Source: a virus
Strand: one strand, 5' to 3'
Length of the DNA stretch: 50,962 nucleotides
IMG/VR virus record: IMGVR_UViG_3300045988_055689
In this document: piece after piece, positions 2,460-32,337 of the stretch
Numbering within the stretch: the first letter of the stretch is position 1
How the letters are laid out: the number at the start of each line of letters is the position of its first letter
Notes under the pieces: generated by a model
Database searches by the model: none
What the model was told of the DNA's origin: nothing
Seen by the model: the letters and a program-made list of their open reading frames with translations, nothing else
Program-made: the position numbers and the translations under genes

Positions 2460-2882
2460 TTAAAACGGCAGAGTGACATCATCTTCCAATTCTGCGAAGT
2501 CGCTAGCTGAAACGTCCACGCCGTTTTTGGCAGATGTATTCGAAGCGGACTTCTGATTATCCTGCTTCGAGTCTCCAAAGTACACGCTATTTGCCAAAAT
2601 CTCCGCACTTTTTCGCTTGCCGCCGTCCTTGTCCGTCCAGTCCCGGATTTGCAGGCGGCCCTCCACCACGGCCATGCGGCCTTTGGAGAAGTACTTGCTG
2701 ACGAACTCAGCGGTGGAGCGCCAGGCCACAATGTCGATGAAGTCCGTCTCCTTTTCGCCGCCTGGCGACTTGAAGTCCCGGTCCACGGCCAGGGTGAAGG
2801 ATGTAACAGCGGTGCCGCTCTGGGTGCGGCGCAGTTCTGGGTTTTTGCAAAGTCTTCCTTGCAAAACAATTTTATTCAGCAT
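2460..2882 (-). CDS. ssb: Single-stranded DNA-binding protein
   Basis: 140 aa. OB-fold N-terminus MLNKIVLQGRL...TSFTLAV...VAWR, and an acidic tail ending DDVTLPF. Confidence 0.9.
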   Translation of the reverse strand: MLNKIVLQGRLCKNPELRRTQSGTAVTSFTLAVDRDFKSPGGEKETDFIDIVAWRSTAEFVSKYFSKGRMAVVEGRLQIRDWTDKDGGKRKSAEILANSVYFGDSKQDNQKSASNTSAKNGVDVSASDFAELEDDVTLPF

Positions 2883-3376
2883 ACTTTCGCCCTCTTCTCG
2901 CTGATTTTTCGCTTTGTTTCATCTGAGAGGCGCTTCCCTGTGTGATGGAAAATTGTATGGGCACCAAAAGACATAAGGCATAGGTTCTCAATTCTGTTGT
3001 CGGTTTTGTCCCCATTCAAATGGTGAATACAGCAACCGGAAGGAACCAAGAACCCAGTTGCTTTTTCCCACGTAAGAATATGTTCCATGACATATCCGGA
3101 TTTGTCGGCTCTTGGATGCTCGGGTGCTAGGATTTGTCTATACCCTTTCGCCGTAATCCTTATCCCGCCGCGCCAGTTGCTTGCCCGCTCTCTTTTTCTG
3201 GCCTGAGACCGATTGACAAATTCAATTTCTTTGGATTTTCTCAGCCCAAGCTTATATGCCTTTTTATAAATCCCTTGCTTCGTTTTATTCGGGATTAACG
3301 TTGCAAGTGTTTCATTCGAAACAACATTATAATTTTGAATTAAAATCGAAATTTCTTCCGGTGTCCATGTTTTCAT
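2876..3376 (-). CDS. HNH homing-type endonuclease with N-terminal Myb/SANT-like region
   Basis: 166 aa. Contains CCIHHLNGDKTDNRIENLCLMSFGAHTIFHH. Confidence 0.8.
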   Translation of the reverse strand: MKTWTPEEISILIQNYNVVSNETLATLIPNKTKQGIYKKAYKLGLRKSKEIEFVNRSQARKRERASNWRGGIRITAKGYRQILAPEHPRADKSGYVMEHILTWEKATGFLVPSGCCIHHLNGDKTDNRIENLCLMSFGAHTIFHHTGKRLSDETKRKISEKRAKVC

Positions 3377-5859: not shown

Positions 5860-6083
5860 CTCGCATCCTTCCGCTTTTGCTGTTTCCAAACCCCGCCGGA
5901 ACAATCGACAGAGCAGAATCGTTTTTGCCGTCGCTTCAAAACTGCGCCGCACACCTCACAGTACCGGGTTCCAATTGATGGATGTCCTTTTCTTGGCGGT
6001 GGGTCTCCAGGGTGAAGCAATTTCCATTGCCCGTAGGTCATATGGGCTTTACGTGCGGAAACCGAATCCTCAATCAGGCTCAT
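5856..6083 (-). CDS. Small zinc-ribbon protein
   Basis: Start chosen at MSLIED (ATGA overlap). Contains CEVCG...FCSVDC. Confidence 0.45.
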   Translation of the reverse strand: MSLIEDSVSARKAHMTYGQWKLLHPGDPPPRKGHPSIGTRYCEVCGAVLKRRQKRFCSVDCSGGVWKQQKRKDAR

Positions 6084-6586
6084 TCCTCGCACCACCAAAT
6101 ATCAGCCGTTTTCACGCCCAAAGATAAAGCCTCCTGGTGACCTTGTACCGCAATGTCCAGCCTGTTTCCCCGGATAGCAGGGCCGGTATCGTCCGCCCGC
6201 AGATACAGCATTTCGCCATTGTGCTCGATCATGATGGTGCTGCCCAGCGGAATCACGGCAGGGTCCACAGCGCAGCTCACATACGGAGTCACGCGCCGTC
6301 CGCTGGCGGTGATGCCGGAGCCTGTCCCGCAGATGTGGGGCCGTTCCTCGCAGCAGTAGAAGGTGATCGTCACGTCCTCCAGCTTGGTTGAGCGGGCCAG
6401 AAGTGCGCTTTCTATAAGCTCATTTTCAGCCGCCTCCAGCTCGTCCAATGTGATCTCCGGCATGGTGGCTTTTGTGTGTTCCGGGCGCGGAGGCTCCGCA
6501 TCCACATTCAGCGCCAGGAATCCAATTAACCAGATTGCCAGAAGCCCGACAAAGCAAAGATATGTAAGAATCTGCCGTCGCTTCAT
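6080..6586 (-). CDS. Membrane-anchored 3D-domain protein (RlpA/MltA-like double-psi barrel)
   Basis: Start chosen at MKRRQILTYLCFVGLLAIWLIGFLAL (TM helix). The C-terminus TFYCCEE...TASGRRV...VAVDPAVIPLGS...DTG.AIRGNRLDI is 3D-domain-like. Confidence 0.6.
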   Translation of the reverse strand: MKRRQILTYLCFVGLLAIWLIGFLALNVDAEPPRPEHTKATMPEITLDELEAAENELIESALLARSTKLEDVTITFYCCEERPHICGTGSGITASGRRVTPYVSCAVDPAVIPLGSTIMIEHNGEMLYLRADDTGPAIRGNRLDIAVQGHQEALSLGVKTADIWWCEE

Positions 6587-6678
6587 ACCCACCCCTCCAG
6601 CTTGTCCACCAAGCGGAACAGCCATCTTGTGGCTGTCCCTATCCCAATCAAAACGAAAACCAGTTCAATCGTTGTCAT
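6583..6678 (-). CDS. 31-aa membrane peptide
   Basis: Translated by hand: MTTIELVFVLIGIGTATRWLFRLVDKLEGWV. It is translationally coupled on both sides. Below the ORF-track size cutoff. Confidence 0.35.
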   Translation of the reverse strand: MTTIELVFVLIGIGTATRWLFRLVDKLEGWV

Positions 6679-6787
6679 CTTTCTCAACCTTTGTAACAGT
6701 AATTTCCGCCGTAACGCCTAATTGCTCCAGGCGCTTTGTCTTTAAGTAAATCAATGCCTTCTGAAAGCAGTCCAGATTTTCTTCCAT
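6665..6787 (-). CDS. 40-aa hypothetical protein
   Basis: Translated by hand: MEENLDCFQKALIYLKTKRLEQLGVTAEITVTKVEKDDND. Strong RBS GAGGAGG lies 8 nt upstream. Confidence 0.45.
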   Translation of the reverse strand: MEENLDCFQKALIYLKTKRLEQLGVTAEITVTKVEKDDND

Positions 6788-6835
6788 AGAAAACTAACCT
6801 CCTCAAGAACTTGGTAAATTTTATGTGATTGCGTC

Positions 6836-6933
6836 TTGTCCAATCCCTTCGGAAGTGATATAGTATAAAAGGGATTGTTTGTGCTGATTCAATCCTTACC
6901 CTCGTCGTGCTGCGAACACGGCGGGGGATTTTT
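6836..6933 (+). ncRNA. Candidate small antisense RNA (promoter + roughly 60-nt transcript + intrinsic terminator)
   Basis: Promoter TTGTCC-17-TGaTATAGT at 6836-6864. The 11-bp hairpin 6899-6909/6917-6927 has two G-U pairs valid only on the plus strand and is followed by TTTTT. There is no ORF. Confidence 0.4.
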
Positions 6934-7198
6934 AGGCATCCTCCGGGTATGCACTGGACACCAGCTCCTTGAGTTCCATCAAATGAATGCCAGGGTCATG
7001 TGCCGCCCGATCAAGAATCAATTCCTTCAACTTGGGGCCAGCTCCCTCTAGCGCCCTGCGATAATCTTCAAACGAATAATTCATATGTGCCTCCTCCCAT
7101 GTCCGGCCCTTCCAATCGCGGCAGAGATTATCAAACTCGCGGTTCACGTACCGGGCCATACCTCTTAATTCCTGAATTGTTGTCGGTTCCTTTTTCAT
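6932..7198 (-). CDS. Hypothetical protein
   Basis: 88-aa ORF with protein-like composition. Confidence 0.55.
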   Translation of the reverse strand: MKKEPTTIQELRGMARYVNREFDNLCRDWKGRTWEEAHMNYSFEDYRRALEGAGPKLKELILDRAAHDPGIHLMELKELVSSAYPEDA

Positions 7199-7219
7199 GT
7201 TAAAAATATCCTCCTATTC

Positions 7220-7325
7220 TTGCCAGAGGCCGGAGGATGTGATATACTGTCTCCGATACCTCGTGGCTCCTTCACGTGGTGTCATGGGCTGTCCTCTGTT
7301 ACCTCCAGAGGCAGCCCGCTTTTTA
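7220..7325 (+). ncRNA. Second candidate small RNA or leader (promoter + roughly 70 nt + terminator)
   Basis: Promoter TTGCCA-17-TGaTATACT at 7220-7248. The hairpin 7286-7298/7306-7317 is followed by TTTTT at 7320-7324. There is no ORF. Confidence 0.35.
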
Positions 7326-7354
7326 TTGTTCCCTTCGCCTGGATATGGTAGAAT
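7326..7354 (+). promoter_or_regulatory. Sigma-A-type promoter with extended -10 (TTGTTC-17-TGgTAGAAT)
   Basis: Read directly. It lies 23 nt upstream of the ATG at 7377. Confidence 0.5.
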
Positions 7355-7376
7355 GTGGGCGAAAGGGGGTATTAAA

Positions 7377-7562
7377 ATGAAGTCAAATTTTGATAAAAAT
7401 AAGTTGTCACAAGTGATACGAGAAAAAGCAAAAGATGCTGCACAGAAGAAGGTTTATGCCGTGGAGTGCCCTCACTGCCATTCAAAAGTTCAGATTACAC
7501 CAGGGGAGCATCCATGTCCCAGTTGTGGAAAGGCCATCAACTTAACTCTTAACTTCAACTGA
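7377..7562 (+). CDS. 61-aa zinc-ribbon protein (accessory)
   Basis: RBS AAGGGGG. Contains CPHC...CPSC. Confidence 0.55.
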   Translation: MKSNFDKNKLSQVIREKAKDAAQKKVYAVECPHCHSKVQITPGEHPCPSCGKAINLTLNFN

Positions 7563-7694
7563 TAAATTCTTGAGTAATCCGGCCAGGTCGCCTGCTAACG
7601 ACTTGGCCTCTTTTATTGTGTTCTCAAGCTGCTCTGCTTTATGCTGAGCTTCATCTACTCCGTTCAGAGTAACATTGAGTTTTACATCGGCCAT
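7542..7694 (-). CDS. 50-aa helical protein
   Basis: Translated by hand: MADVKLNVTLNGVDEAQHKAEQLENTIKEAKSLAGDLAGLLKNLSVEVKS. RBS GGTGAGGGGGTGAGAG. It overlaps the 3' end of the convergent gene by 21 nt. Confidence 0.4.
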   Translation of the reverse strand: MADVKLNVTLNGVDEAQHKAEQLENTIKEAKSLAGDLAGLLKNLSVEVKS

Positions 7695-7706
7695 TCTCTC
7701 ACCCCC

Positions 7707-7859
7707 TCACCATCCATAAGAAACGAATGTCATGTAAAAAATGATAGCCCACCCAAGCCACCATAACGCCTCGCCATTCTCCTTCTTATATTTAAAATAG
7801 GCGGCGACTGTTGCACATAAAATATAGATTATAAACACAATCGTTTTAAAAACCGCCAT
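7707..7859 (-). CDS. 50-aa two-helix membrane protein
   Basis: Translated by hand: MAVFKTIVFIIYILCATVAAYFKYKKENGEALWWLGWAIIFYMTFVSYGW. RBS CAGGAG. Confidence 0.4.
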   Translation of the reverse strand: MAVFKTIVFIIYILCATVAAYFKYKKENGEALWWLGWAIIFYMTFVSYGW

Positions 7860-7997
7860 TTCAATCTCCTGTTTGTCCTATGTCCTGATCGGAAAGCAAC
7901 TCGTCTACTGTTGCGACAAGGTAGAAGAATTCTTCTGAACAACCCGATCAAGTGCATCTCACCCAGAAGGTCAGCAGTCCACTTTGCTGGCATACCA

Positions 7998-8026
7998 TTG
8001 TCACCTTCTTTCTGTTTTGGTAGAAT
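7998..8026 (+). promoter_or_regulatory. Sigma-A-type promoter with extended -10 (TTGTCA-17-TGgTAGAAT)
   Basis: Read directly. Confidence 0.55.
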
Positions 8027-8047
8027 AGCCGCAAAGGAGGTATAAAA

Positions 8048-8479
8048 ATGGAAAATGAATTAGTTAATGCGATATCTATTAACACCACTATCATTGCATC
8101 TGTAGTTTCTATTGCTGCCGTTTCTATTTGCTCCGTTCTTTCGGCTTTCATAACCCAACGTGGAGCACGGAAAGCAAAACAGGCAGAATTGATACTTCAG
8201 GAGACGATTTCTGCCTATTACGAACTGCTGAAAGTAGGCGGTGAATTTTCTGATGCCTTCAATCAACAACAGGTGACCAGATTTATGGACGCTTATACAA
8301 AAGCGCTTCTGTTCGCGTCACCTGGATCTGCTGAACTGATACGCTCATATAAAGATAGCATCACACTTATTTCCACTATGAAATTGAATCCACCCCCAAA
8401 TTTTTCAAAGTTACTTTCTGAATATGAAGAAATTACAGAAAATTTGGTAATCTCTATGCAAAAAGATTTAAGAAAGTAA
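8048..8479 (+). CDS. Membrane-anchored helical protein of unknown function (accessory)
   Basis: 143 aa. RBS AAAGGAGG. N-terminal TM helix IIASVVSIAAVSICSVLSAFI followed by a helical soluble domain. Confidence 0.6.
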   Translation: MENELVNAISINTTIIASVVSIAAVSICSVLSAFITQRGARKAKQAELILQETISAYYELLKVGGEFSDAFNQQQVTRFMDAYTKALLFASPGSAELIRSYKDSITLISTMKLNPPPNFSKLLSEYEEITENLVISMQKDLRK

Positions 8480-8650
8480 GTCATGTACCATGACCACCAA
8501 GAGCATGACTGTCAGTATCAGTGACGGTAGCGCAATGAGCCAAGGTTTGTTGCTCTCCGGATGTTGCTTTATAATGTCGCATGATATTAGAGAAGAAAAC
8601 ATAAACGCTAATGACATGATTAGATAAATCAGTAAGCGCACTGTCAGCAC
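8468..8650 (-). CDS. 60-aa two-TM hydrophobic protein
   Basis: GTG start 9 nt after GAGGGGGGG. It converges on 8048-8479 with a 12-nt overlap. Confidence 0.4.
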   Translation of the reverse strand: MLTVRLLIYLIMSLAFMFSSLISCDIIKQHPESNKPWLIALPSLILTVMLLVVMVHDLLS

Positions 8651-8775
8651 TGATGCTTACCCCCCCTCATGCACCTTGATCTTCAGAATGTGCAAACAGC
8701 TCACGTTTTTTTGAAATTTAGCTTTTCCCTCCATGCTTTTCTGTGTTACAATCCAGAAAGAAGGGAGGTGAAACT

Positions 8776-9111
8776 GTGGAAATTAACCTAACAAAAGATG
8801 CAGATAAGGCTATTTGTTTGATTTATAAGGAATATCTCGCAAGGAGAGAATCCGGGGCATCGAAGAAGACTGCAAAAGATTTTTCTTCCCGCGACCAATG
8901 GCCTGAATCTTTTCCGAAAGATGCTGGATTCCCGGACTTTTTAGAATCGCTAAACGAACTCAAGTCGAAGGGGTTCGTGAAGAGATTTGTCCTCGGAGGC
9001 TTCCAACTTGAAGATGAAGGAATCATCTACATGGAACAGAGATTTCCGGGCGGTATTTCTCAAATCCTTGATTGGCTCGGCAAAATCAAGTCCGCTATTC
9101 CGTTTGCATAG
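8776..9111 (+). CDS. Hypothetical protein, possibly winged-helix-like (accessory)
   Basis: GTG start after GAAGGGAGGTGA. Extended -10 TGtTACAAT at 8744-8752. Confidence 0.5.
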   Translation: MEINLTKDADKAICLIYKEYLARRESGASKKTAKDFSSRDQWPESFPKDAGFPDFLESLNELKSKGFVKRFVLGGFQLEDEGIIYMEQRFPGGISQILDWLGKIKSAIPFA

Positions 9112-9274
9112 GGACTGCACCGTAATTCTCAATATCTACATTTTCAACGATGACTCGGAGCTCCACCTCCGGGTCTTCGCCTGCTTTTGCGATGATTTTG
9201 AACCCAGTGCAACACACGATCTCTTTTTCTCCAAGAAATATTTTGTCTTTTGTTACTCTAAAAGTGTCCATCAT
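9095..9274 (-). CDS. 59-aa hypothetical protein
   Basis: Start MMDTFRV after GAGGAGGTGAGA. It converges on 8776-9111 with a 17-nt overlap. Confidence 0.45.
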   Translation of the reverse strand: MMDTFRVTKDKIFLGEKEIVCCTGFKIIAKAGEDPEVELRVIVENVDIENYGAVPMQTE

Positions 9275-9283
9275 TCTCACCTC

Positions 9284-9331
9284 CTCAATCAATTTGCGTG
9301 TGCAGTTATTTTAGGCTTTGCTTCTGCTGCC
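9284..9331. repeat. Conserved 48-nt leader element, copy A (42/48 identical to 10131-10178)
   Basis: ctcaatcaatttgcgtgtgcagttattttaggctttgcttctgctgcc compared with ctcactcaatttgcgtgtgcggttattttatgatctgcttctgctgct. Both copies sit immediately 5' of small minus-strand genes. Confidence 0.8.
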
Positions 9332-9368
9332 CTCTATCATTGGAGGGCTTCCTTTTCTCTCTTGGTGC

Positions 9369-9405
9369 TGCTATCTTCTGAAAGAAGCTCGTCCACCGTC
9401 ACGCC
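9369..9405 (-). pseudogene. Relic of the 3' end of an XRE repressor gene
   Basis: tgctatcttctgaaagaagctcgtccaccgtcacgcc aligns with 10761-10800, the C-terminus of the 10732-10953 repressor, with one 3-nt indel and 3 mismatches. It reads ...GVTVDELLSEDSS and has no N-terminal part. Confidence 0.55.
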
Positions 9406-9409
9406 GTTC

Positions 9410-9438
9410 TTGTTCGCCTCCCGCGTCCGTGGTATACT
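9410..9438 (+). promoter_or_regulatory. Sigma-A-type promoter with extended -10 (TTGTTC-17-TGgTATACT)
   Basis: Read directly. Confidence 0.5.
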
Positions 9439-9455
9439 TGCGGTGAGGAGGCGAT

Positions 9456-9953
9456 ATGATGATTTTAATTGCTGTTTTGTGCATCATAGTTATTTACTGT
9501 TCTATCAATGCTGCACGGTATCTTCTTACAAGGCATTACCACAAATTGTTTTTGTCAAAGGATTTGCGGCTCCCTCAGTTCACTGCGCCGGTCGAACGAC
9601 TTTTTGATATTGCCGGAACTAATAAAATTTTTGCGTCTGGTGCTTATGCTGGTCAAAAAATATCCTATTGCCTATCCGTCCCGCAGTATGAAGTGTATTT
9701 AGACCGAACATTCCAACAAACCATGGGGATATTTAAGTTTCGAGCTGTAAACAGCTTTAATCCTTTTTATTGGTTCGGCTTACCCGGACGAACCTTAAAA
9801 TCGTTTAATATTTGCCTCCAAAATCCAATAAATGCAATCATTTCTGCATTGGTATGGGTTGTTAGCGTGGTTCTTGCATACAAGTTGGAAATTGCTTTGG
9901 ACAACGGCCTTCTCGAAGAATTACATGCAATCTGTCGTAACATTCTAAAATGA
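9456..9953 (+). CDS. Membrane protein of unknown function (accessory)
   Basis: 165 aa. RBS GAGGAGG. An N-terminal TM helix and a C-terminal TM helix (IISALVWVVSVVLAY). Confidence 0.55.
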   Translation: MMILIAVLCIIVIYCSINAARYLLTRHYHKLFLSKDLRLPQFTAPVERLFDIAGTNKIFASGAYAGQKISYCLSVPQYEVYLDRTFQQTMGIFKFRAVNSFNPFYWFGLPGRTLKSFNICLQNPINAIISALVWVVSVVLAYKLEIALDNGLLEELHAICRNILK

Positions 9954-10128
9954 AGTTGTGTGTCTCCTGCCTTCTTTTAAATGTCATTACATGTTCCAAC
10001 GCGGAAATTTCTGTCTCCATAGCTACACTTAATTTGAGTTTCAATATGTCCAATTCATCTGCATCCGGCGAAATTAAAAAGTGTTTGCCCGCAATAGTCG
10101 TTTCAACAAGATCATCCACAAATGTCAC
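9862..10128 (-). CDS. Hypothetical protein (start may be the second GTG at 10119)
   Basis: GTG starts follow GAGTGAGGGG. It overlaps convergent 9456-9953 by 92 nt, so its true extent is uncertain. Confidence 0.3.
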   Translation of the reverse strand: MTFVDDLVETTIAGKHFLISPDADELDILKLKLSVAMETEISALEHVMTFKRRQETHNFILECYDRLHVILREGRCPKQFPTCMQEPR

Positions 10129-10130
10129 CC

Positions 10131-10178
10131 CTCACTCAATTTGCGTGTGCGGTTATTTTATGATCTGCTTCTGCTGCT
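10131..10178. repeat. Conserved 48-nt leader element, copy B
   Basis: See 9284-9331. Confidence 0.8.
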
Positions 10179-10225
10179 TCTCCATAGCGATCACGCCCTC
10201 GGAGTAGCCCTACATGCATTCTTTC

Positions 10226-10254
10226 TTGCCCCTCATCCCTCGTCATGATAGAAT
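10226..10254 (+). promoter_or_regulatory. Sigma-A-type promoter with extended -10 (TTGCCC-17-TGaTAGAAT)
   Basis: Read directly. Confidence 0.5.
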
Positions 10255-10285
10255 ATAAGCAACAATAAAAAAGGGGGGAGAAGAC

Positions 10286-10663
10286 ATGGCCTATAGCCAC
10301 AAAGACATACCAAGTAAAACATTAAAATTGCTTGAATCTGTTTTAGAAAATGATGGGAAAATCCAAACACTTTTAGCTGTCAACGGCTGTTCCGATGATG
10401 AGAACTGGGCAAGAATCAATGAGTTAAAAGAGCTTGGGTTCATCTTCGAAGGCCAGGGCTATGATGATAATGGGAATCCGTGTGGAGGAGCATTATTTAT
10501 CACAAACGAAGGAAAAGCGTTCCTATCGGATGTAAAAGAAAACCGCTCTGCACGAAGACGTGAGATTGTTTCCAATGTCCTCATTTCGGCTCTGACAGCT
10601 GGCTTAGTAGCATGGGGACCCAGTATACTGAGCTGGCTACGAGAGCTGATATCGCAATCGTAA
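10286..10663 (+). CDS. Hypothetical protein with C-terminal TM anchor (accessory)
   Basis: 125 aa. RBS AAGGGGGGAG. The C-terminal stretch VLISALTAGLVAWGPSILSWL is hydrophobic. Confidence 0.55.
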   Translation: MAYSHKDIPSKTLKLLESVLENDGKIQTLLAVNGCSDDENWARINELKELGFIFEGQGYDDNGNPCGGALFITNEGKAFLSDVKENRSARRREIVSNVLISALTAGLVAWGPSILSWLRELISQS

Positions 10664-10678
10664 TCAACCTATCGAGCG

Positions 10679-10720
10679 CCCGTCTGTGATTCCGCACATC
10701 ACAGACGGGTTTCTTCCTTT
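10679..10720 (+). terminator. Intrinsic terminator (12-bp perfect stem, T-rich tail)
   Basis: cccgtctgtgat/atcacagacggg (10679-10690/10698-10709) followed by tttcttcctttt. Confidence 0.7.
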
Positions 10721-10731
10721 TGGGAGACATA

Positions 10732-10953
10732 TTATCTGTTACCTCCTCGAACACATTCCTTGCTATCATCCTCTGCAAGAAGCTCGTCCACGGTCACGCC
10801 AAAGTAGTCCGCTACTTTCTTGATTGTTTCAATGCGTGGAGAAGATGTCTTCCATTTTCCAATCGTTCCATTTCCAATCTCAGTAGCAGTCTCTAACGCC
10901 CAAACACTCACCCCTCTTTCGCTACAAAGGCGCTTTACATTATTAAAAAGCAC
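10732..10953 (-). CDS. XRE-family HTH regulator (Cro-like by size and orientation toward the early operon)
   Basis: 73 aa. GTG start after GGAGGTG. LCSERGVSVWALETATEIGNGTIGKWK is an XRE-type HTH. Confidence 0.75.
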   Translation of the reverse strand: MLFNNVKRLCSERGVSVWALETATEIGNGTIGKWKTSSPRIETIKKVADYFGVTVDELLAEDDSKECVRGGNR

Positions 10954-10983
10954 TTTTTCACCTCCCTATTTACTAGAAAAAAC

Positions 10984-11012
10984 TTGACGAACTTTAGAAA
11001 ATAGTCTATTAT
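10984..11012 (+). promoter_or_regulatory. Rightward switch promoter TTGACG-17-TATTAT with TAGAAAA operator half-site in the spacer
   Basis: Read directly. It points toward the 11163 gene. Confidence 0.5.
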
Positions 11013-11090
11013 TGTCTTGTCAGGATAAATAACTATTTCGAAAGCTCTAAGTGGTGGAGGGCTTGGTTTTTTGTACCCTCTGTACTTTCT

Positions 11091-11119
11091 ATAATACTAG
11101 AAAATTTTCTACCTGTCAA
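11091..11119 (-). promoter_or_regulatory. Leftward switch promoter TTGACA-17-TATTAT; spacer contains the 14-bp palindrome TAGAAAATTTTCTA (11098-11111)
   Basis: Read directly on the reverse complement. It points toward the 10953 gene and faces the rightward promoter. Confidence 0.5.
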
Positions 11120-11162
11120 GATATTTTTCTAGTATTTTTCTAGCTATTTTATGAGGTGTAAA

Positions 11163-11552
11163 ATGCTCACGAATGAGGAGATAGTTGAGAAAATTCGCGA
11201 ACTCGCAAGGCAAAAGAATACTTCTTTAACCGATATTGAAAAAAATCTCGCTTGGTCTAATGGAAGAATAGGAAAATGGAAGCATGCAAAAAAAGGTCCG
11301 CAAAAACAAGATTTAGAACTTGTATCAAGAGAGCTAAAAGTGCCCGTTGAAGTCATTACTGGAGAGCAAAAAGGAAAGCTCGCCTCCACACTTGGAGACG
11401 AGCTTGAAGAAGCCATTATTATTGGGCGAGATGGAAAGAAAATTAAACGGACTTATACAAAAGATCAAATGGACGCACTCAGAAAAGTCATTGATGTTAT
11501 GCCATTTGTCAACGACGAAGAGATATTTGATGGTTCGCTAGATGATTTTTAA
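11163..11552 (+). CDS. XRE-family repressor (CI/ImmR-like, with C-terminal extension)
   Basis: Start at MLTNEEIV. LARQKNTSLTDIEKNLAWSNGRIGKWK is an HTH. 129 aa. Confidence 0.7.
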   Translation: MLTNEEIVEKIRELARQKNTSLTDIEKNLAWSNGRIGKWKHAKKGPQKQDLELVSRELKVPVEVITGEQKGKLASTLGDELEEAIIIGRDGKKIKRTYTKDQMDALRKVIDVMPFVNDEEIFDGSLDDF

Positions 11553-12174
11553 TAAATGACTCAAACTGCTTGTAAACTTTCCATTCAGTTGATGATCTAA
11601 AAAAATAAGAATATCCTCTTTCGGCCATATACTGATCGTCTAGCTTATAAAGTTTCTTTAACCTTTCGCGGCATATGTTTGCAGCTTGCAAACTGACTCC
11701 GCAAGAGGATGCAATTGCATAGGTGCCATCTATTTTGAGCGCGCGCAGTATGCAAGCCGGGGTCAACAATTGAGCAGCAAACGAATTCGCTTCTATTTCA
11801 TCAGAGTCGTTTTTTGATCCCGGTTCTCTTCTGACTGCTCCATCTGTATTCGCGTGGCCGAGCGCAAAGTGTCCAATTTCATGCGCAATTGTAAAGTTTC
11901 GCCGTCCTTTTGACTGTTGTTGGTTGTAAAATGCTATTGCAAAATCATCTATTTGGAATAGGAAACCGTCCGCGCCGATTGCGTATTGCACAAGTCCAAA
12001 TTTTTGAATGATTCTATATCCTTGACTATATGAAAACAAACCAATACCTAAGCCTTTACAAACCTTTTGGAGATCAACCGGCAATTCGCAAATCCCGCAC
12101 TTTAGTAGGACATCCCAAGCTGTCATGTTATCCTCCGTTAGTCGAACATTTGTTCTTTTGTTGGATAATAGCAT
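11509..12174 (-). CDS. immA: ImmA/IrrE-family metallopeptidase (anti-repressor protease)
   Basis: HEIGHFALGH (HExxH) and EANSFAAQLLTP. Start chosen at MLLSNK; an alternative ATG lies at 12198. Confidence 0.8.
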   Translation of the reverse strand: MLLSNKRTNVRLTEDNMTAWDVLLKCGICELPVDLQKVCKGLGIGLFSYSQGYRIIQKFGLVQYAIGADGFLFQIDDFAIAFYNQQQSKGRRNFTIAHEIGHFALGHANTDGAVRREPGSKNDSDEIEANSFAAQLLTPACILRALKIDGTYAIASSCGVSLQAANICRERLKKLYKLDDQYMAERGYSYFFRSSTEWKVYKQFESFIKNHLANHQISLRR

Positions 12175-12361
12175 AACACCTGTAGATTTATAAATCAATC
12201 AGCATATTTTCACAATTCTTTCCATTTATATTTTGTATTGACCTATATCTAGTGGTCTTTACTTTTATACCACAATTTTACTTTTTAAAATAGGTTTCCA
12301 TTTTAGTGAAAAGCCGCCGTCAGGAATCCCCTGGCGGCGTGATCTTAGGAGGTGCGCATTT

Positions 12362-13702
12362 GTGAAACGGGCTGCGTTATATATTCGAGTCAGTACAGAA
12401 GAGCAGGCCCGGCACGGCCTATCTCTGGAGGACCAAAAAAACAACCTGACTCAATTTTCAAAATCTCACGGAATGAAGATTGCTGGCATCTATGAAGATG
12501 CTGGCATTTCCGCCAGAAAACCATACAAGAAACGCCCTGCTCTCTTGCGTTTACTTGAAGATTGTAAGGCTGGGAAGATTGATCTGATCTTGTTCATAAA
12601 GCTGGACAGATGGTTTAGAAATGTGGGGAACTACTATGCCGTTCAAGAAATCCTAGACCAATACAATGTATCTTGGCAGGCGACACAAGAGGATTATGAG
12701 ACGACAACCGCATCCGGACGGCTGAAAGTAAATATCATGTTGTCTGTTGCCCAAGATGAAGCAGATCGGACCAGTGAGCGCATTAAGTTCGTATTTGAGG
12801 GAAAGCGGGCGCGGCTGGAGCCTCTTACCGGGAATATACCTTTTGGTTACAAAATTGAAGGGAAGGCATTCAAAAAGGATGAATCTAAAGAGGCTCTTGT
12901 TAATGATTTCTTTAAGAAGTATCTAGCCTCCGGTTCTATTTCAAAAACTTCCGAATTTATCAGAGAAAAATACGGTATTTCAATGAGATACCATCTCATT
13001 GATAAGATGCTGCGCAGCACCACATATTACGGGAAATATTACAATATGGACGGAATGTGTCCTGCCTATATCACTAAAGAAGATCATGAGAAGATTCAGG
13101 CTATGCGGAGAAAGGTTGTCCGAAAAGCAAAGAACAATCGAACCTATCTGTTTTCTGGATTGGTGGTTTGCCCAGAGTGTGGGAACAGGATGGGCGCTCG
13201 CATTAACACAAAGCAGACGTATGTGTTCTATAACTGCAACGGGCATTATACAAAACAAAACGGATGCCAAAACCGCGTCAATCTGGGGGAAAGGAAAATT
13301 GAAGAGTATCTTCTTGCGACGGTAGATAACAAATTCCATGAGTACAAGGCCAATTTCTCTGCCCTTAAAAATGCAGAAATAAACAAGAGGGCACGCGCAG
13401 AAATCTCCGCCGCAAAATCAAAGTTAAATAAGTTGAAAGATTTGTATCTGAATGACATTATCACGCTCGAAGAATTAAAGGCTGACCGTGAATCACTTCT
13501 CGCAAAAATTAGTGATTTAGAGAAAGCTGCACTCCCTGAACAAAAGCAGGACTTTGAGAGCATTGATAGGGTGTTGATTGAAAACTGGAAGGAATCTTAC
13601 GACGGACTCAACCGAGAAGAAAAACGAGAATTTTGGCGGATTATTATCAAAGAAATCAAAATTTACCCTGATAGGCACATAGAATATTCCTTAAATGTTT
13701 GA
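12362..13702 (+). CDS. Large serine recombinase (phage integrase)
   Basis: 446 aa. GTG start after AGGAGGTG. AALYIRVSTEEQ resolvase catalytic domain, a recombinase domain, the CPECGN...YNCNG zinc ribbon and a coiled coil. Confidence 0.9.
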   Translation: MKRAALYIRVSTEEQARHGLSLEDQKNNLTQFSKSHGMKIAGIYEDAGISARKPYKKRPALLRLLEDCKAGKIDLILFIKLDRWFRNVGNYYAVQEILDQYNVSWQATQEDYETTTASGRLKVNIMLSVAQDEADRTSERIKFVFEGKRARLEPLTGNIPFGYKIEGKAFKKDESKEALVNDFFKKYLASGSISKTSEFIREKYGISMRYHLIDKMLRSTTYYGKYYNMDGMCPAYITKEDHEKIQAMRRKVVRKAKNNRTYLFSGLVVCPECGNRMGARINTKQTYVFYNCNGHYTKQNGCQNRVNLGERKIEEYLLATVDNKFHEYKANFSALKNAEINKRARAEISAAKSKLNKLKDLYLNDIITLEELKADRESLLAKISDLEKAALPEQKQDFESIDRVLIENWKESYDGLNREEKREFWRIIIKEIKIYPDRHIEYSLNV

Positions 13703-13719
13703 AAAATTTTTAATGAATT

Positions 13720-13770
13720 TTATTACTTAATATTTCTCCCTGTGTAGTTGCGATAATATTATGTAATAAA
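13720..13770. other. Candidate attP region (weak call)
   Basis: AT-rich spacer directly 3' of the integrase gene. It has an imperfect inverted repeat, ttaatatt (13727-13734) / aatattat (13755-13762). Confidence 0.2.
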
Positions 13771-13797
13771 ATCCCCGCCCTCACAAGAGAGCGGGGA
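13765..13797 (-). terminator. Intrinsic terminator ending the late/accessory minus-strand transcript
   Basis: tccccgc/gcgggga stem. On the minus strand it is followed by attttatt. Confidence 0.55.
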
Positions 13798-13803
13798 CTA
13801 TCG

Positions 13804-14565
13804 TCAGTGCTTCACGACAAACTCATAGTACCGAGCGAGTTTGTCCGGAGCGGCGTCCTGGTCGTCCAGAAACGCTTTCGCAATTTCGGCATAGAAGTCG
13901 ATGTTGCTGACATTGAGCTTCTTGGCGACCTTGCTGTAATCGGAATAGACCATGTTCATGGCCGCGTAGAACTCCGCAGGGTCGCAGTTGATACCGCGCT
14001 GCGTCATGATCTGGTTGGTCTGCTCCATCGTCCAGTGAGGGCCCGTGGTGCCGTCCTCGTTTTTCATTTCACGAGTCCACTCCTCCGCCATCTCTTTGCT
14101 GAACGGGGCGACGCCGGAGCCATAGCCGTGGCCGCTCACGCGCTCGCCTCCGCGGCGGTATGCCATCTCGTCACCGCGATAATCGTGGCTGAACTCAGGC
14201 GGGATTTTGTTCATCTCCCCCTCCATGGAAAAGCCAATCTTATTCATCGGACGCAGAGAGTAATCCTGGTCATAGTGGCGCATGGAACCATCCTGATAGA
14301 CCGGGGGCACGTAGGGCGTCATGCGGTAATGGGATTCCGGGCCATAGTTCCCGTGCAGGTGTTCGTCGTAGTAGCTCATAGGAGCATACCGGCCATTGTC
14401 ATAGTGTTCCCGGCCCCGGCGGTCACGGAATTTGTCCTCTACCCACATCTCGCTTTCACCGCGAGGCGCAAAGCGGCCGTCGGAATACCGACGATACCCA
14501 CGATCTTCCACATCGTAGTTCCTGCGGCTGCCGGACATCAGCATCATTCGTGTAGATTTTTTCAT
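13804..14565 (-). CDS. Arg/Tyr/Asp/Gly-rich protein with conserved-looking C-terminal domain (unknown function)
   Basis: 253 aa. The N-terminal ~150 aa are low complexity (RRNYDVEDRGYRRYSDGRF...). The C-terminus is EEWTREMKNEDGTTGPHWTMEQT...FYAAMNMVYSDY...KLARYYEFVVKH. Confidence 0.6.
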   Translation of the reverse strand: MKKSTRMMLMSGSRRNYDVEDRGYRRYSDGRFAPRGESEMWVEDKFRDRRGREHYDNGRYAPMSYYDEHLHGNYGPESHYRMTPYVPPVYQDGSMRHYDQDYSLRPMNKIGFSMEGEMNKIPPEFSHDYRGDEMAYRRGGERVSGHGYGSGVAPFSKEMAEEWTREMKNEDGTTGPHWTMEQTNQIMTQRGINCDPAEFYAAMNMVYSDYSKVAKKLNVSNIDFYAEIAKAFLDDQDAAPDKLARYYEFVVKH

Positions 14566-14577
14566 GAGACTACCTCC

Positions 14578-14973
14578 TTACGCCGTAGGGGCGGGAGCGG
14601 CGCCGCCGTCAATGCTGGCAAGGTTGTTATTGGGAGCGCAGCAAGGCTGGCCCAGCATCCGGAAAGAGCCGCCGGTGGGGGTAGTCACTACACAGACAGA
14701 GTAGCGGGTGCGGGTTCGAATGCCGCAGGCGGTGACCTGCGCACAGTTGCACTTGGTCAGCGGGTAAAGCGTAGTCCCCGTTCCAATTGTAACATATACC
14801 GGCGCATTGATGGTAGTGGTATCCGGAATAGCCTGGGCAACGACGATGCAGTACTTCTCTCCATTGTTATAAGCTCCGGCAGGTAGATTGATCTCCAAGT
14901 TCCCACCGGTAAAGGTGACGGCCTGGGAGAGGACCAGGCGATCACACAGCTTGCATACAGGCTTACAAGACAT
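14578..14973 (-). CDS. Cys-rich 131-aa protein (unknown function)
   Basis: Start at MSCKPVCKLCD after GGAGGAG. About 10 Cys, including CNC and CC pairs. Confidence 0.55.
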   Translation of the reverse strand: MSCKPVCKLCDRLVLSQAVTFTGGNLEINLPAGAYNNGEKYCIVVAQAIPDTTTINAPVYVTIGTGTTLYPLTKCNCAQVTACGIRTRTRYSVCVVTTPTGGSFRMLGQPCCAPNNNLASIDGGAAPAPTA

Positions 14974-14984
14974 ATTACTCCTCC

Positions 14985-15022
14985 AAAAAATCAGGGGCAG
15001 CAGACGTTCAGCCTGCCGCCCC
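14985..15022 (-). terminator. Intrinsic terminator/attenuator inside the low-complexity cluster
   Basis: A 10-bp stem (15022-15013/15003-14994) has one pair that is G-U only on the minus strand. It is followed by tgatttttt. Confidence 0.6.
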
Positions 15023-15067
15023 GAAATAGTCACGGCAAAGCCGGAAGATGTAAGTGGTTCTTACCGA

Positions 15068-15835
15068 TCAGCAGCCGCAGCCGCACCCATTATAAGTCCC
15101 GCAGTAGGGATAAGGCGCGGGCACCTGATAGGCCGGAACAGGCATGGGATTGATGCGACGAATGAGTTCCGCAGTCTGCGCTTCCTGATTTGCTGTAATA
15201 AAGGCGTTCTGGGCCGCCTGGGAGGCCGCCAGCTTCAGGGACTGATTCTCTGCCTGGAGGCTGGAAATCTTGTCCTGGCAAAGGTAATCCAAAATCGCGC
15301 GGGTATTGGCATTGTTGTTGTCCAGAATGTCGCGGGTGGTATTCTGGATGGTATTGCGGGTATCGCAGGCCTGGGTAGCCATATCATACCGGACTCCCTG
15401 AATAGCAGTCTGGGTATCGCAGCAGCACTGCGCCAGCTGTGCGCCCAGAGAGTTAAAGCCGGTCTGAGTTTGATAGCCCAGATTGCAGATAGCCGTATCT
15501 ACCCCGTGGAAGCCATTGGTCATGGTGTTGTTCAGAGCAAACGTGCTGTCGCAGATGCCCTGCTGGATGCCCTGAATTCCACGCTCCACACCGTTGAAGG
15601 CGATGGCTTCATGCACGTCGGCACGGGTTGCAAGTCCCTGGAGGCCGGGACTATCAGAAGCACCGCCGCCAAAACCACCGAAGCCGCCGAAGCCGCCGCG
15701 GCCCCAGCCGAACACCATAGCCAGAATGATGATGCCCCAAAGGCCTTCCCAGGCACCGCCGCCGAAACCGTTGTTACAATTGCCGCCGTTGGAATCGCTG
15801 CCCAGCGCATAGCCAGTCGCAAAATCGTTATCCAT
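15068..15835 (-). CDS. Gly-rich/TM N-terminus, Cys-repeat core, coiled coil, CGCGC C-terminus protein (unknown function)
   Basis: 255 aa. Contains GGFGGFGGFGGG around LWGIIILAMVFGW, repeated C-D-T/S motifs, and ends in CGTYNGCGCGC. Confidence 0.6.
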   Translation of the reverse strand: MDNDFATGYALGSDSNGGNCNNGFGGGAWEGLWGIIILAMVFGWGRGGFGGFGGFGGGASDSPGLQGLATRADVHEAIAFNGVERGIQGIQQGICDSTFALNNTMTNGFHGVDTAICNLGYQTQTGFNSLGAQLAQCCCDTQTAIQGVRYDMATQACDTRNTIQNTTRDILDNNNANTRAILDYLCQDKISSLQAENQSLKLAASQAAQNAFITANQEAQTAELIRRINPMPVPAYQVPAPYPYCGTYNGCGCGC

Positions 15836-15942
15836 TTGTAGATACTCCTTTTTCAGTTATTACATCGGGGCCGTACGCTCCCCGGATGTTTCCAAAGAGC
15901 GGTTTTTATCAAGACCCGAAAACTGAAAAGGATGGTATATAA

Positions 15943-16185
15943 TTATCTGCTGCTTGGAATCGTTACGCCAAGCTGCCGGGCGAGGTCATCAATGGATATC
16001 CCCCGCTCCTTTGCCATGTTCTCCGCGATCTGCTGAAGCTGCTGAGGGTTCTTCCCCTGAATGAGCCTCATAGCCTGTGCCGCCTGCGGGTTTTGCCCTG
16101 CCATCTGTTGGAGGAGCTGCATGGGATTTCTCCCAGCCCGCATCATTTGGAGCATAGCCATCATGGGATTATTCATCGGCATCAT
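15943..16185 (-). CDS. Met/Gln-rich 80-aa protein with three NP(M/Q)Q repeats
   Basis: MMPMNNPMMAMLQMMRAGRNPMQLLQQMAGQNPQAAQAMRLIQGKNPQQLQQ... Confidence 0.5.
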   Translation of the reverse strand: MMPMNNPMMAMLQMMRAGRNPMQLLQQMAGQNPQAAQAMRLIQGKNPQQLQQIAENMAKERGISIDDLARQLGVTIPSSR

Positions 16186-16654
16186 TTTTCTTTCCCGCCT
16201 TTCCGATAGAAGCGGGCTTTTTCAGCCTTTCTATCTCCTCTTTGAGATTGTTGATGGTGTCTTTCATATCCATAAATTCATCCAGAGGCGCGAAGGCAGG
16301 GACCGGATTCTCTGCCGGCTGTTCCCGTACCTGCTGCTGGCTATGGAACTCAAACACATCCGCCGCGCCGGTGTTGGTGTTAAATCGCTTCATATAGATC
16401 ACATTATGGGCCAGGTCCGGGAAAAACATGGGATTTCCCATGAAGTCAACCGGAACTCCCAGAGCTTCCTCCCTGGAAGCCACAGGGCGGCAGAAGAAGG
16501 TGGGCTGTGTGTTTACATTTCCCTGAGGCTGCACGGCCTGTGAGGGCTGTTGAGGCGGTTGCTGGGGCTGATATACTTGTAGTGCCGGGGCGAACGGAGT
16601 CACGGGATTGTAGCCTCCGTAAGCCGGGTAAGTATAGTTAGGGAACGCCATCAT
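16169..16654 (-). CDS. Pro/Gln/Tyr-rich N-terminus protein with coiled-coil Lys-rich tail
   Basis: 161 aa. Begins MMAFPNYTYPAYGGYNPVTPFAPALQVYQPQQPPQQP... Confidence 0.55.
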   Translation of the reverse strand: MMAFPNYTYPAYGGYNPVTPFAPALQVYQPQQPPQQPSQAVQPQGNVNTQPTFFCRPVASREEALGVPVDFMGNPMFFPDLAHNVIYMKRFNTNTGAADVFEFHSQQQVREQPAENPVPAFAPLDEFMDMKDTINNLKEEIERLKKPASIGKAGKKNDADE

Positions 16655-17013
16655 GCATACTCCTTTCTGTCATCATAAAGAAGCTCTATTTGTTTGATAA
16701 AGGTCTCCAGTCCGGAGAAATTTCCCGCTGCTGCATATCGCTGGCATATGTCCTCCGCTGAAGATGCTGTATATCCGCAGGCTACCAGCCGCTTGACAAG
16801 CTCAGACCCATTCACAAGCAAAATAACACGTCCTTTCAAACAAAAAACGGAGTCCGTGAGGAGGGCGGCGACGTGTACCAACCCTTGAATCCTCACGTCC
16901 TCCATGTCTCTATTGTCGCATAAAAAATCCCCGCATGGGTGGCATCCATGTGGGAATTGTGTGAAGTTATGTGAAAAGAATAATGAGCCGTCTGGTTGTG
17001 ACAAACGGCTCAT
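16651..17013 (-). CDS. Hypothetical protein (Cys/His-rich N-terminus)
   Basis: 120 aa. It overlaps the next gene by ATGA. Confidence 0.45.
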   Translation of the reverse strand: MSRLSQPDGSLFFSHNFTQFPHGCHPCGDFLCDNRDMEDVRIQGLVHVAALLTDSVFCLKGRVILLVNGSELVKRLVACGYTASSAEDICQRYAAAGNFSGLETFIKQIELLYDDRKEYA

Positions 17014-17063
17014 GTCCCTTTTCTGATAAGGCTATGTAGGTTATGTGACAGTTGACTTGAAAT

Positions 17064-32302: not shown

Positions 32303-32337
32303 AAGATCACCACCTTAATTTTTTGTGGAGGGGAAAA

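Follow-up and report, generated by a model that had tools for sequence, protein, structure and literature searches.

The window analysed here is the whole 50,962-nucleotide (nt) stretch of viral DNA held as IMG/VR record IMGVR_UViG_3300045988_055689, a temperate phage genome of about 51 kb in an apparently circular assembly, and the element in question is its segment 7220-10730. We regard it as somewhat probable that this segment is an early lytic operon interrupted five times by antisense, self-promoted cargo genes, i.e., a multiply interrupted noncontiguous operon (the term for an operon broken up by a self-promoted antisense gene; PMC11087260, PMC9694928, PMC11034616) that is built as a stack of morons. 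Five plus-strand genes alternate in it with minus-strand genes (reading leftward, 10953-10732, 10119-9862, 9274-9095, 8650-8468, 7859-7707, 7694-7542 and 7198-6932); two co-oriented gene sets flank the opposite-strand genes, and at the level of sequence the antisense genes have promoter motifs of their own. As expected of morons, cargo found at a given position in some relatives is missing or replaced there in others (loci L008, L012, L013 and L014), and three plus-strand units consist of promoter, gene and terminator (-14 to -25 kcal/mol), the genes for the products of 143 and 165 amino acids (aa) having no terminator of their own. On present evidence, this is a known architecture in an unusually dense example with uncharacterised cargo and not a new kind of system; the sequence-only reading of this DNA, which had put it forward as a candidate for an undescribed system, went too far, as the architecture has already been described in Staphylococcus aureus phages and in phi80.

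The cI-like gene and the integrase gene lie on the plus strand, and the cro-like gene and the recombination genes on the minus strand (further left, the latter carries genes for a 3D-domain protein, SSAP, an exonuclease and SSB), and we therefore take plus to be the lysogeny strand and minus the early lytic strand. The small minus-strand open reading frames (ORFs) belong to the cro-driven early operon, of which 7220-10730 is the cro-proximal part. A scan from 10732 to 7198 gave no convincing minus-strand promoter or strong terminator, and the plus-strand terminators, which have no T-run on the minus strand, are therefore one-directional, so that leftward early transcription should pass them. 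Operator-like ACTAGAAAA repeats cluster at the switch and are, within the region, confined to 10972-11133; a motif search within the region found none at the plus-strand cargo promoters. In one contig, the serine integrase abuts host DctQ/DctM genes, and the phage therefore integrates. Near-identical contigs, each about 51 kb long, come from many human-gut metagenomes. In a megablast search with the region, no isolated phage came close (isolated phages gave faint DNA matches, the best named one being a 45-nt match to a Flavonifractor phage), and the closest relatives of one cargo product, the phrog_750 protein, are in metagenome-assembled genomes of Oscillospiraceae and Clostridia. The phage is a temperate siphophage, and its host group is the gut Clostridia.

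Promoters and terminators were called by scanning for consensus motifs, with terminator strength expressed as fold energy and z score (Table 1). The five plus-strand ORFs, their ribosome-binding sites (RBSs, of GGAGG/GGGGG type ahead of every start) and the promoters reported by the sequence-only reading were all found where it had placed them, and a sixth plus-strand promoter (P7220) that it had missed was added; its picture of self-promoted accessory cassettes that lie on the lysogeny strand and face the leftward early operon agrees with the sequence anatomy. The window contains the extended -10 motif TGNTANAAT 15 times versus 6.8 +/- 2.6 times in shuffled sequences, none of 100 shuffles reaching 15, and the plus-strand promoter motifs are therefore not due to chance. 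If the TATACT variant is counted as well, the plus strand has 15 extended -10 motifs, 6 of them within this 3.5 kb (7% of the window). The five gene-proximal -10 motifs end 17-31 nt ahead of the start codon, leaving a very short RBS-bearing leader (about 10-25 nt), and the promoters are predicted to be compact sigma-A promoters with an extended -10. Three plus-strand terminators were detected, in a narrower delimitation at 7581-7608, 9329-9348 and 10678-10710, and neither the scan nor folding revealed one after the stop of the 143-aa or the 165-aa gene; the five genes therefore form three units, namely P7220/P7326, 61-aa gene and T7581; P7998, 143-aa gene, P8744, 111-aa gene and T9329; and P9410, 165-aa gene, P10226, 125-aa gene and T10678. 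The predicted transcripts of the second and third units run antisense across the whole of the 60-, 59- and 85-aa ORFs. Segment 7190-7376, upstream of cargo gene 1, is 91-96% conserved in L008, L012 and L014, though the downstream cargo differs, and the sequence upstream of P7998 apparently lies inside an opposite-strand helix-turn-helix (HTH) gene in L079, as judged from ORF translations rather than from an alignment.

Table 1. Features in and around segment 7220-10730 of the window (promoters and terminators as predicted; overlaps refer to 3' ends)
Feature	Coordinates	Strand	Details
Cargo gene 1, 61-aa CxxC...CxxC zinc-ribbon protein	7377-7562	+	phrog_9188, E 4e-12
Cargo gene 2, 143 aa, orphan family	8048-8479	+	one N-terminal transmembrane segment (residues 15-33), remainder helical
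Cargo gene 3, 111-aa winged-helix protein	8776-9111	+	phrog_750, E 7e-24; inside open frame 8743-9111
Cargo gene 4, 165 aa, orphan family	9456-9953	+	hydrophobic segments at residues 1-19 and 124-142
Cargo gene 5, 125 aa, rare family	10286-10663	+	predicted PadR/MarR-like winged helix, then long C-terminal helix
Early-operon gene, 50 aa, predicted coiled-coil-like	7542-7694	-	21-nt overlap with cargo gene 1
Early-operon gene, 50-aa membrane peptide	7707-7859	-	phrog_28739, E 1e-6; AGGAG RBS; hydrophobic segment
60-aa peptide, two transmembrane segments	8468-8650	-	convergent with cargo gene 2, 12-nt overlap
Early-operon gene, 59 aa	9095-9274	-	GAGGAGG RBS; 17-nt overlap with cargo gene 3
85-aa ORF	9862-10119	-	92-nt overlap with cargo gene 4; called by metagenome gene caller
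Cro-like XRE HTH gene, 73 aa	10732-10953	-	HTH_26; first gene of leftward early operon
Switch	10954-11150		divergent consensus promoters, TTGACA-17-TATTAT leftward, TTGACG-17-TATTAT rightward
Switch promoter, leftward	11119-11091	-	promoter scan
Switch promoter, rightward	10984-11012	+	promoter scan
cI-like XRE gene	11151-11552	+	
Integrase gene	12362-13702	+	
Promoter P7220	7220-7248	+	TTGCCA-17-TGaTATACT; sixth plus-strand promoter, from the scan; tandem with P7326
Promoter P7326	7326-7354	+	TTGTTC-17-TGgTAGAAT; -10 ends 22 nt before ATG
Promoter P7998	7998-8026	+	TTGTCA-17-TGgTAGAAT; -10 ends 21 nt before ATG
Extended -10 of cargo gene 3 (P8744)	8744-8752	+	TGtTACAAT; no good -35
Promoter P9410	9410-9438	+	TTGTTC-17-TGgTATACT; -10 ends 17 nt before ATG
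Promoter P10226	10226-10254	+	TTGCCC-17-TGaTAGAAT; -10 ends 31 nt before ATG
Terminator of plus-strand unit 1 (T7581)	7581-7618	+	-18.8 kcal/mol, z -4.6; inside coding sequence of minus ORF 7542-7694
Terminator of plus-strand unit 2, 143-aa and 111-aa genes (T9329)	9329-9358	+	-14.4 kcal/mol, z -3.9
Terminator between cargo gene 5 and XRE 3' end (T10678)	10678-10720	+	-25.5 kcal/mol, z -4.3
HTH early-gene remnant (pseudogene)	7862-7993	-	N-terminal piece MPAKWTADLLGEMHL...; frame-shifted C-terminal piece ...VATVDELLSDQDIGQTGD, then stop
XRE/cro 3'-end remnant	9331-9405	-	ends ...GVTVDELLSEDSSTKREKEALQ, then two stops
Post-XRE spacer copies	9283-9330 and 10130-10177		90% identical to each other

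Phages 80alpha, phi13 and phi80 suggest, by analogy, how the segment may work. The early operon would be repressed in the lysogen, and the cargo promoters would fire constitutively, since they lack the switch-operator motif (the same absence, read from the DNA, is what would support moron-like expression from a repressed prophage). The membrane proteins (143, 165 and 125 aa), the winged-helix proteins (111 and 125 aa) and the zinc-ribbon protein would then be made and would serve the lysogen, most plausibly in superinfection exclusion or regulation, and read-through cargo transcripts would cover the small early genes in antisense, damping leaky lytic expression. Once the prophage is induced, the cro promoter would drive strong leftward transcription that collides head-on with the plus-strand units and silences the cargo. 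Several points weigh against this interpretation. The promoter and terminator calls are consensus matches, three of the -35 hexamers agreeing with the consensus at 3 of 6 bases and P8744 having no -35, and the single RNA spanning the minus-strand genes is a prediction. Exclusion or regulation as a role is guessed from the membrane anchors and winged-helix folds of the products. If the promoters are constitutive, they would fire in lytic growth too, and lysogen specificity hangs on the collision model. Finally, the low GC content of the region (0.43 versus 0.49-0.51 in the remaining phage) does not single out the plus-strand cassettes, as it spans the entire switch/lysogeny module (7.2-13.7 kb) and the minus-strand genes as well.

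The antisense position is seen across phages for the third cargo gene. Its product belongs to phrog_750 (residues 3-110 match profile positions 4-115 of 116), and its AlphaFold2 model (pLDDT 83) shows a winged-helix fold and weakly matches domains of JetB/MukE and MarR type. We found 37 homologues of this family, and tblastn located it in 82 phage records (mostly Triavirus of S. aureus, but also phages of Listeria, Streptococcus, Paenibacillus, Lacticaseibacillus and Blautia); it is present, too, in 46 genome loci of Clostridia and Bacilli. In every case inspected, the gene lies on the cI strand inside the cro operon, one to a few genes from cro, and this antisense, cro-proximal position recurs across Staphylococcus, Paenibacillus, Blautia and Clostridia phages (e.g., phiSLT, where the gene is orf121, Montmirail, Wanderer, where it is gp41, L018 and L019-21); a crude and noisy scan of ORF strands in the 46 genome loci, which gives a trend only, likewise places it antisense in most. 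A TGnTAnnnT motif stands 20-55 nt upstream in 22 of 51 loci compared to 5.6% of control positions, and the gene usually appears to have its own -10 element. As a rule, a small convergent ORF overlaps it at the 3' end by 4-26 nt, the tails of the minus-strand ORFs varying among relatives and the C-terminus of phrog_750 being strongly conserved. The gene and its convergent partner of about 60 aa were considered as a conserved pair and rejected as such: the partners are unrelated in three of the four other loci compared (L019, L010 and L011) and related only in L018. What is conserved for phrog_750 is position and orientation, not the pair. A literature search for phrog_750 found nothing.

In a number of Lachnospiraceae loci (L010, L027, L028, L030, L032-L036, L043, L046, L047, L060-L062, L066 and L067), the phrog_750 leader carries an inverted repeat right after the -10 (TATACT GTACTTACAGGC...GCC..GCCGAGTAC), about 55 to 15 nt before the start codon, that is absent from the window's copy and could be an autoregulatory operator or an RNA hairpin.

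The small minus-strand ORFs, which the sequence-only reading had described as genes that might form units with their convergent neighbours, fare unequally. They have good RBSs, and 12 nt separate the stop of 7707-7859 from the start of 7542-7694. Both 50-aa products match PHROGs (for 7542-7694, whose RBS lies in the end of the upstream gene, phrog_19236 with E 5e-9 and phrog_5996), the 59-aa ORF has a 46%-identical homologue at the same position in L018, and the 60-aa ORF, missed by the metagenome gene caller, has a ratio of nonsynonymous to synonymous substitution rates (dN/dS, computed throughout against diverged relatives) of 0.08 versus L074, all of which speaks for real genes. The 85-aa ORF has a dN/dS of 0.92 versus L014, i.e., no purifying selection, and its coding status is therefore doubtful; its start is more likely 10119 than 10128 (from where it would be 88 aa long). 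The four 3' overlaps of 21, 12, 17 and 92 nt are as first described. The fifth plus-strand gene (125 aa) has no overlapping partner; between its end and the convergent XRE gene are 69 nt that hold a strong terminator. The overlaps are most simply explained as compaction. With the 3' ends fused, only the 5' ends remain safe recombination points, and the convergent genes therefore travel together, so that the overlap alone can explain the co-transfer of pairs.

The clearest such case is the 143-aa/60-aa membrane-protein pair, which moves as a unit. It occurs with the same 12-nt overlap in differing contexts in L073, L074 and L079, and L075 has the same DNA block; L073-L075 share with the window only 8048-8664 (78% identity), i.e., from the plus-strand start codon to the minus-strand RBS, and the homology of the 60-aa gene ends 14 nt upstream of its start. 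In L079, the pair stands directly at the switch, the 60-aa gene being the first after it, and in L078 the 143-aa gene and its promoter are deleted and the 60-aa gene is retained. The dN/dS of the 143-aa gene is 0.16 versus L074.

Each convergent pair could instead be an immunity/counter-immunity pair of the Tha/Ith or Tai/Ati type, in which the plus-strand gene provides lysogen defence or exclusion and the small minus-strand gene encodes its early-lytic inhibitor, whose synthesis is tied to early-operon activity and spares the induced phage from its own defence. We think this possible but rather unlikely. The architecture is as described for these two systems, whose authors predict more such pairs on noncontiguous operons (PMC11087260, PMC11364771), and for the 143/60 pair several observations favour it: it keeps its overlap in several contexts (L073, L074 and L079), both genes are under purifying selection, both products are membrane proteins, and a 60-aa gene outliving its 143-aa partner in L078 would be tolerable if it encoded an inhibitor and not a toxin. 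The 111/59 pair fits in part, being co-conserved at about 50% identity in L018 only. Beyond these, the phrog_750 partner is unrelated in L019, Montmirail and Wanderer, the 85-aa partner evolves without purifying selection, no partner overlaps the 125-aa gene, physical overlap by itself would lead to co-transfer, and no product resembles a known defence protein. Immunity/counter-immunity is thus attractive for 143/60 and fails as a general rule, and the claim that every pair is a functional unit does not hold for phrog_750, the family with the best sampling. A bolder proposal, to which we assign a similarly low probability, is that the cro-proximal region serves as a rack for lysogeny-strand immunity genes silenced by lytic transcription, with 143/60 as an exclusion or defence protein and its early-lytic inhibitor and phrog_750 as a general lysis-lysogeny regulator or guard.

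Comparison with related prophages, which the sequence-only reading had recommended, shows that cargo has been gained, lost and swapped among relatives, with most breakpoints at the 5' ends of genes. L008 (GCA_037068825.1) is 99.7-99.9% identical on both sides and has 7374-9282 replaced; there, the gene behind the same P7326 promoter and RBS encodes a 235-aa protein, which matches DUF4145 below threshold. L012 replaces exactly 7377-7690, from the plus-strand to the minus-strand start codon and thus cargo gene 1 together with 7542-7694, by a 155-aa membrane protein (with an N-terminal transmembrane segment, and driven by the same promoter and RBS as in the window, P7326) and a 66-aa minus-strand ORF; 7707-7859 is conserved in it. 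L012 also has an intact XRE/cro gene where the window keeps a 3' fragment, and in L014 the 165/85 block adjoins an intact XRE gene and the 125-aa cassette is missing at this site. The HTH remnant has an intact 97-aa version in L079 and an intact 58-aa gene ending ...GVAVDELLSDQDAG in L008. Within the window, 9366-9405 in the XRE remnant is 85% identical to 10761-10800 in the cro-like gene, whose product diverges from its relatives in the C-terminal tail past ...DELLAED. A repeated AAEA.KITAHAN followed by a stop was considered as the C-terminal tail of the XRE proteins and ruled out: the intact XRE homologues in L012 and L014 end ...DELLSE(D/N)(S/T)ST(K/N)REKEALQ and stop there, and the repeat is therefore an intergenic spacer. 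This spacer is contiguous with the intact XRE gene in L012 and L014 (directly abutting its 3' end in L014), and the copy at 10130-10177 is cut off from its XRE gene by the cargo-5 cassette. We infer from these traces that the 125-aa cassette (about 10180-10730) was probably inserted at the 3' end of the cro-like gene, replacing its last 11 or so codons, and that the blocks further left probably arose from switch-proximal segments that recombination at conserved XRE and promoter sequences piled up. Nor is the interleaving unique to this phage: the otherwise unrelated locus L073 shows the order -69, +143, -63, +107, -49, +178, -48, -103 (cro-like) / +118 (cI-like), its plus-strand genes having promoters of the TTTACC-17-TGnTAnAAT type.

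The same observations raise the question of whether the alternation is nothing but a recombination scar, in which XRE/cro exchanges stacked switch-proximal fragments and the plus-strand genes are donor leftovers without a regulatory role or current function. The XRE and HTH remnants beside plus-strand promoters, the position of the 143/60 pair at the switch in L079, and breakpoints at conserved boundary sequences are what a scar would leave; it would leave neither purifying selection on three cargo genes (143, 165 and 111 aa, the three that were tested) and the 60-aa gene, nor maintained sets of promoter, RBS and terminator, nor an antisense phrog_750 position conserved across distant genera, nor an interleaved design recurring in unrelated loci. 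The scar scenario explains the origin of the segment and is compatible with an interrupted operon; its only true point of rivalry, the lack of function, seems quite improbable to us.

We give equally little credence to the possibility that the plus-strand genes are not lysogen-specific, being constitutive or expressed in the lytic phase, e.g., as host-takeover or regulatory proteins early in infection. Promoters without a recognisable operator should work on an incoming genome, and winged-helix and zinc-ribbon proteins could be regulators, but facing the strongest early unit head-on would serve early lytic genes poorly, the plus-strand genes share the cI/int strand in every relative examined in detail, and the analogous antisense genes of 80alpha switch with induction. 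The least credible alternative, which we consider very improbable, is that the pairs are toxin-antitoxin-like, e.g., of type I with a small hydrophobic minus-strand peptide (60 or 50 aa) as toxin and the plus-strand transcript as antisense antitoxin: the convergent 3'-overlapping layout without a terminator between the genes resembles that of the Bacillus subtilis prophage-borne type I systems txpA/RatA and bsrG/SR4, and the 60-aa and 50-aa products are small and hydrophobic, but the supposed antitoxin strand encodes conserved proteins under purifying selection and not a small RNA, the peptides sit in an early lytic operon without their own promoter, no family match was found in Pfam, PADLOC, NCBIfam or Rfam, and linkage is not obligate, the 60-aa gene persisting alone in L078, where the 143-aa gene and promoter have been lost; were the peptide a toxin, that loss would be lethal.

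With the interrupted operon as the preferred interpretation, the nature of the remaining cargo can be considered. The description of most products as membrane-anchored or very small was borne out by hydropathy scanning, which revealed hydrophobic 19-mers in the 143-, 165- and 125-aa proteins and in the products of two minus-strand ORFs. The 61-aa protein gave only sub-threshold Pfam zinc-ribbon matches and has an 80-aa homologue in L078, also on the lysogeny strand. The 125-, 165- and 143-aa families are near-orphans in deep protein searches: the 165-aa protein (dN/dS 0.18 versus L014) has near-identical homologues only, among 5.8 billion proteins, and the 125-aa protein has 10 matches among 1.84 billion representatives. 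The AlphaFold2 model of the latter (pLDDT 80) matches PadR/MarR folds in Foldseek (E 2e-4 to 1e-2), and hydropathy suggests that residues 98-116, at the helix end, are probably transmembrane; L014 encodes elsewhere in its region a 126-aa protein of similar layout that is 25% identical to it. The structure matches of the 111-aa and 125-aa proteins are weak (E 2e-4 to 0.1) and indicate fold, not function, and an hhalign probability of 18.6% did not establish these two winged-helix proteins as paralogues.

The identities suggested in the sequence-only reading (defence, abortive infection, exclusion or toxin-antitoxin) found no above-threshold match in PADLOC, Pfam, NCBIfam or PDB sequence searches. 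For all ten products, Pfam, PHROGs, PADLOC and NCBIfam returned function-unknown PHROGs and the sub-threshold zinc-ribbon matches, and none matched a known defence, toxin-antitoxin or exclusion family in Pfam, PADLOC or NCBIfam. PADLOC-DB v2 gave chance-level matches only (E about 0.01), PADLOC 2023 predating Tha and Tai, and no defence-protein model in Pfam or NCBIfam was matched above threshold. The PDB sequence search gave nothing for the 143-, 165- and 125-aa proteins, and these three and the 61-aa protein had no tblastn match in 50,697 phage records. The search of the alternative cargo in relatives gave nothing beyond the sub-threshold DUF4145 match. Rfam had no match in 6000-12500.

Some further observations concern promoters and possible RNAs near the segment. 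In L014 (3589-4137), P7220 has no plus-strand gene downstream and faces a 140-aa minus-strand membrane-protein gene, where it may act as a dedicated antisense promoter. At 6836-6936 (plus strand), between two minus-strand early genes, a TTGTCC-17-TGaTATAGT promoter is followed about 35 nt later by a strong terminator (6899-6927), which predicts a plus-strand RNA of about 60 nt with two hairpins (-28.6 kcal/mol, z -4.3); the segment has no Rfam match and is conserved in L013 and L014. Also between two minus-strand early genes, L008 has about 430 bp without a convincing ORF (6348-6784), which could be a non-coding RNA or a decayed gene. Over the window, extended -10 motifs number 15 on the plus and 7 on the minus strand, though almost all genes are on the minus strand; the other plus-strand motifs (15772, 16569, 17155, 19304, 19850, 20899, 24185, 30845 and 31661) may mark more antisense units, e.g., near the plus-strand ORFs 16061-16543 and 32323-32985.

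At the switch itself there is another antisense layout: the cI-like XRE gene and an ImmA-like Peptidase_M78 gene (11509-12198, minus strand) are convergent with a 44-nt overlap, a departure from the usual immR-immA operon, and the protease gene shows at 12194-12165 a promoter-like site of its own that includes an extended -10. Right of the switch, at about 12300-17600 of the window, the integration and cargo modules vary among near-identical phages (L002-L006), L002 having a tyrosine integrase instead of the serine recombinase, L003 and L005 an NYN-domain gene, and L004 a SocA_Panacea-domain gene and a 124-aa gene. To the left, a gene for a 166-aa HNH_3 endonuclease (2876-3376, minus strand), located between the SSB and HTH_39 genes, is present in the window, L001, L002, L005 and L006 and absent from the otherwise near-identical L003, L004 and L007, the pattern expected for insertion of a mobile (homing) endonuclease.

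The moron concept reportedly goes back to Hendrix and colleagues. Like morons, of which a transcriptomic overview exists for lambdoid and HK97-like phages (PMC7067206), the plus-strand genes are extra genes with their own promoter and terminator, present or absent among relatives at the same site and expected to be active while the prophage is repressed. Classical morons are intergenic, mostly in the late region, and often point the same way as the genes around them, whereas those described here run antisense, overlap adjacent genes and are swapped as convergent units. That convergent genes with overlapping 3' ends are swapped together, the breakpoints falling at the 5' ends, is a useful guide to phage mosaicism. 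In the Pseudomonas phage Fc02 (olg1/olg2 and gene 10; PMC9936078), as is proposed for the window, a small lysogen-expressed gene by the repressor overlaps an opposite-strand early lytic gene; exclusion was shown experimentally for both Fc02 genes, the phage is Mu-like (Beetrevirus), and the proteins are unrelated. Excludons (PMC7154746; ExcludonFinder, PMC12288877) would share overlapping opposite transcription and mutually exclusive expression through interference and RNase III but are defined by long overlapping untranslated regions in transcriptomes, whereas here it is the anatomy of the DNA that is compared.

Phage phi80 uses the logic of the 80alpha ith-1/tha-1 arrangement in its late operon with Tai/Ati (PMC11364771): a reverse-oriented gene interrupts a lytic operon, Tai being a constitutive immune gene and the operon carrying a counter-defence gene. 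Tai lies in the Q-dependent late operon and targets tail assembly, whereas the cassettes described here lie in the early operon and have no known immunity or counter-immunity activity.

The closest likeness is to the noncontiguous operons of S. aureus phages (Saenz-Lahoya 2019; Rostol 2024, PMC11087260; Iturbe-Sanz 2024, PMC11034616). Direct RNA sequencing revealed four of them in 80alpha (PMC11087260, PMC11034616), with ith-1 within the cI/tha-1 operon and orf11 and orf19, whose transcription switches on induction, within the cro-driven lytic operon; the ith-1/tha-1 architecture couples immunity to the life cycle through polymerase collision and an inhibitor protein (PMC11087260). In phi13, S861 and orfC are such cases (Rohmer 2022, PMC9694928). 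The window shares with these phages self-promoted antisense genes nested in an operon near the lysis-lysogeny switch, a 3' overlap with the operon neighbour (26 nt for gp10/gp11 of 80alpha, 12-92 nt here) and the proposed mutual exclusion of lysogenic and lytic transcription, which here would follow by analogy; the earlier idea of the cassettes as transcriptional roadblocks would have its experimentally studied counterpart in the noncontiguous operon with RNA-polymerase collision (PMC11087260). It differs in that its hosts are gut Clostridia, its cargo includes no Tha/Ith homologue and its case is made from DNA alone, and also in density, with five antisense genes in 3.5 kb compared to four noncontiguous operons in the whole 43.9 kb of 80alpha. 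The phrog_750 gene beside cro, the co-inherited 143/60 pair and the three orphan cargo genes unknown to defence catalogues are the targets that it offers. If the interpretation is true, one lytic transcript would switch off five cargo genes together, and the noncontiguous-operon strategy, so far described from S. aureus phages and phi80, would be used far more densely in phages of gut Clostridia.

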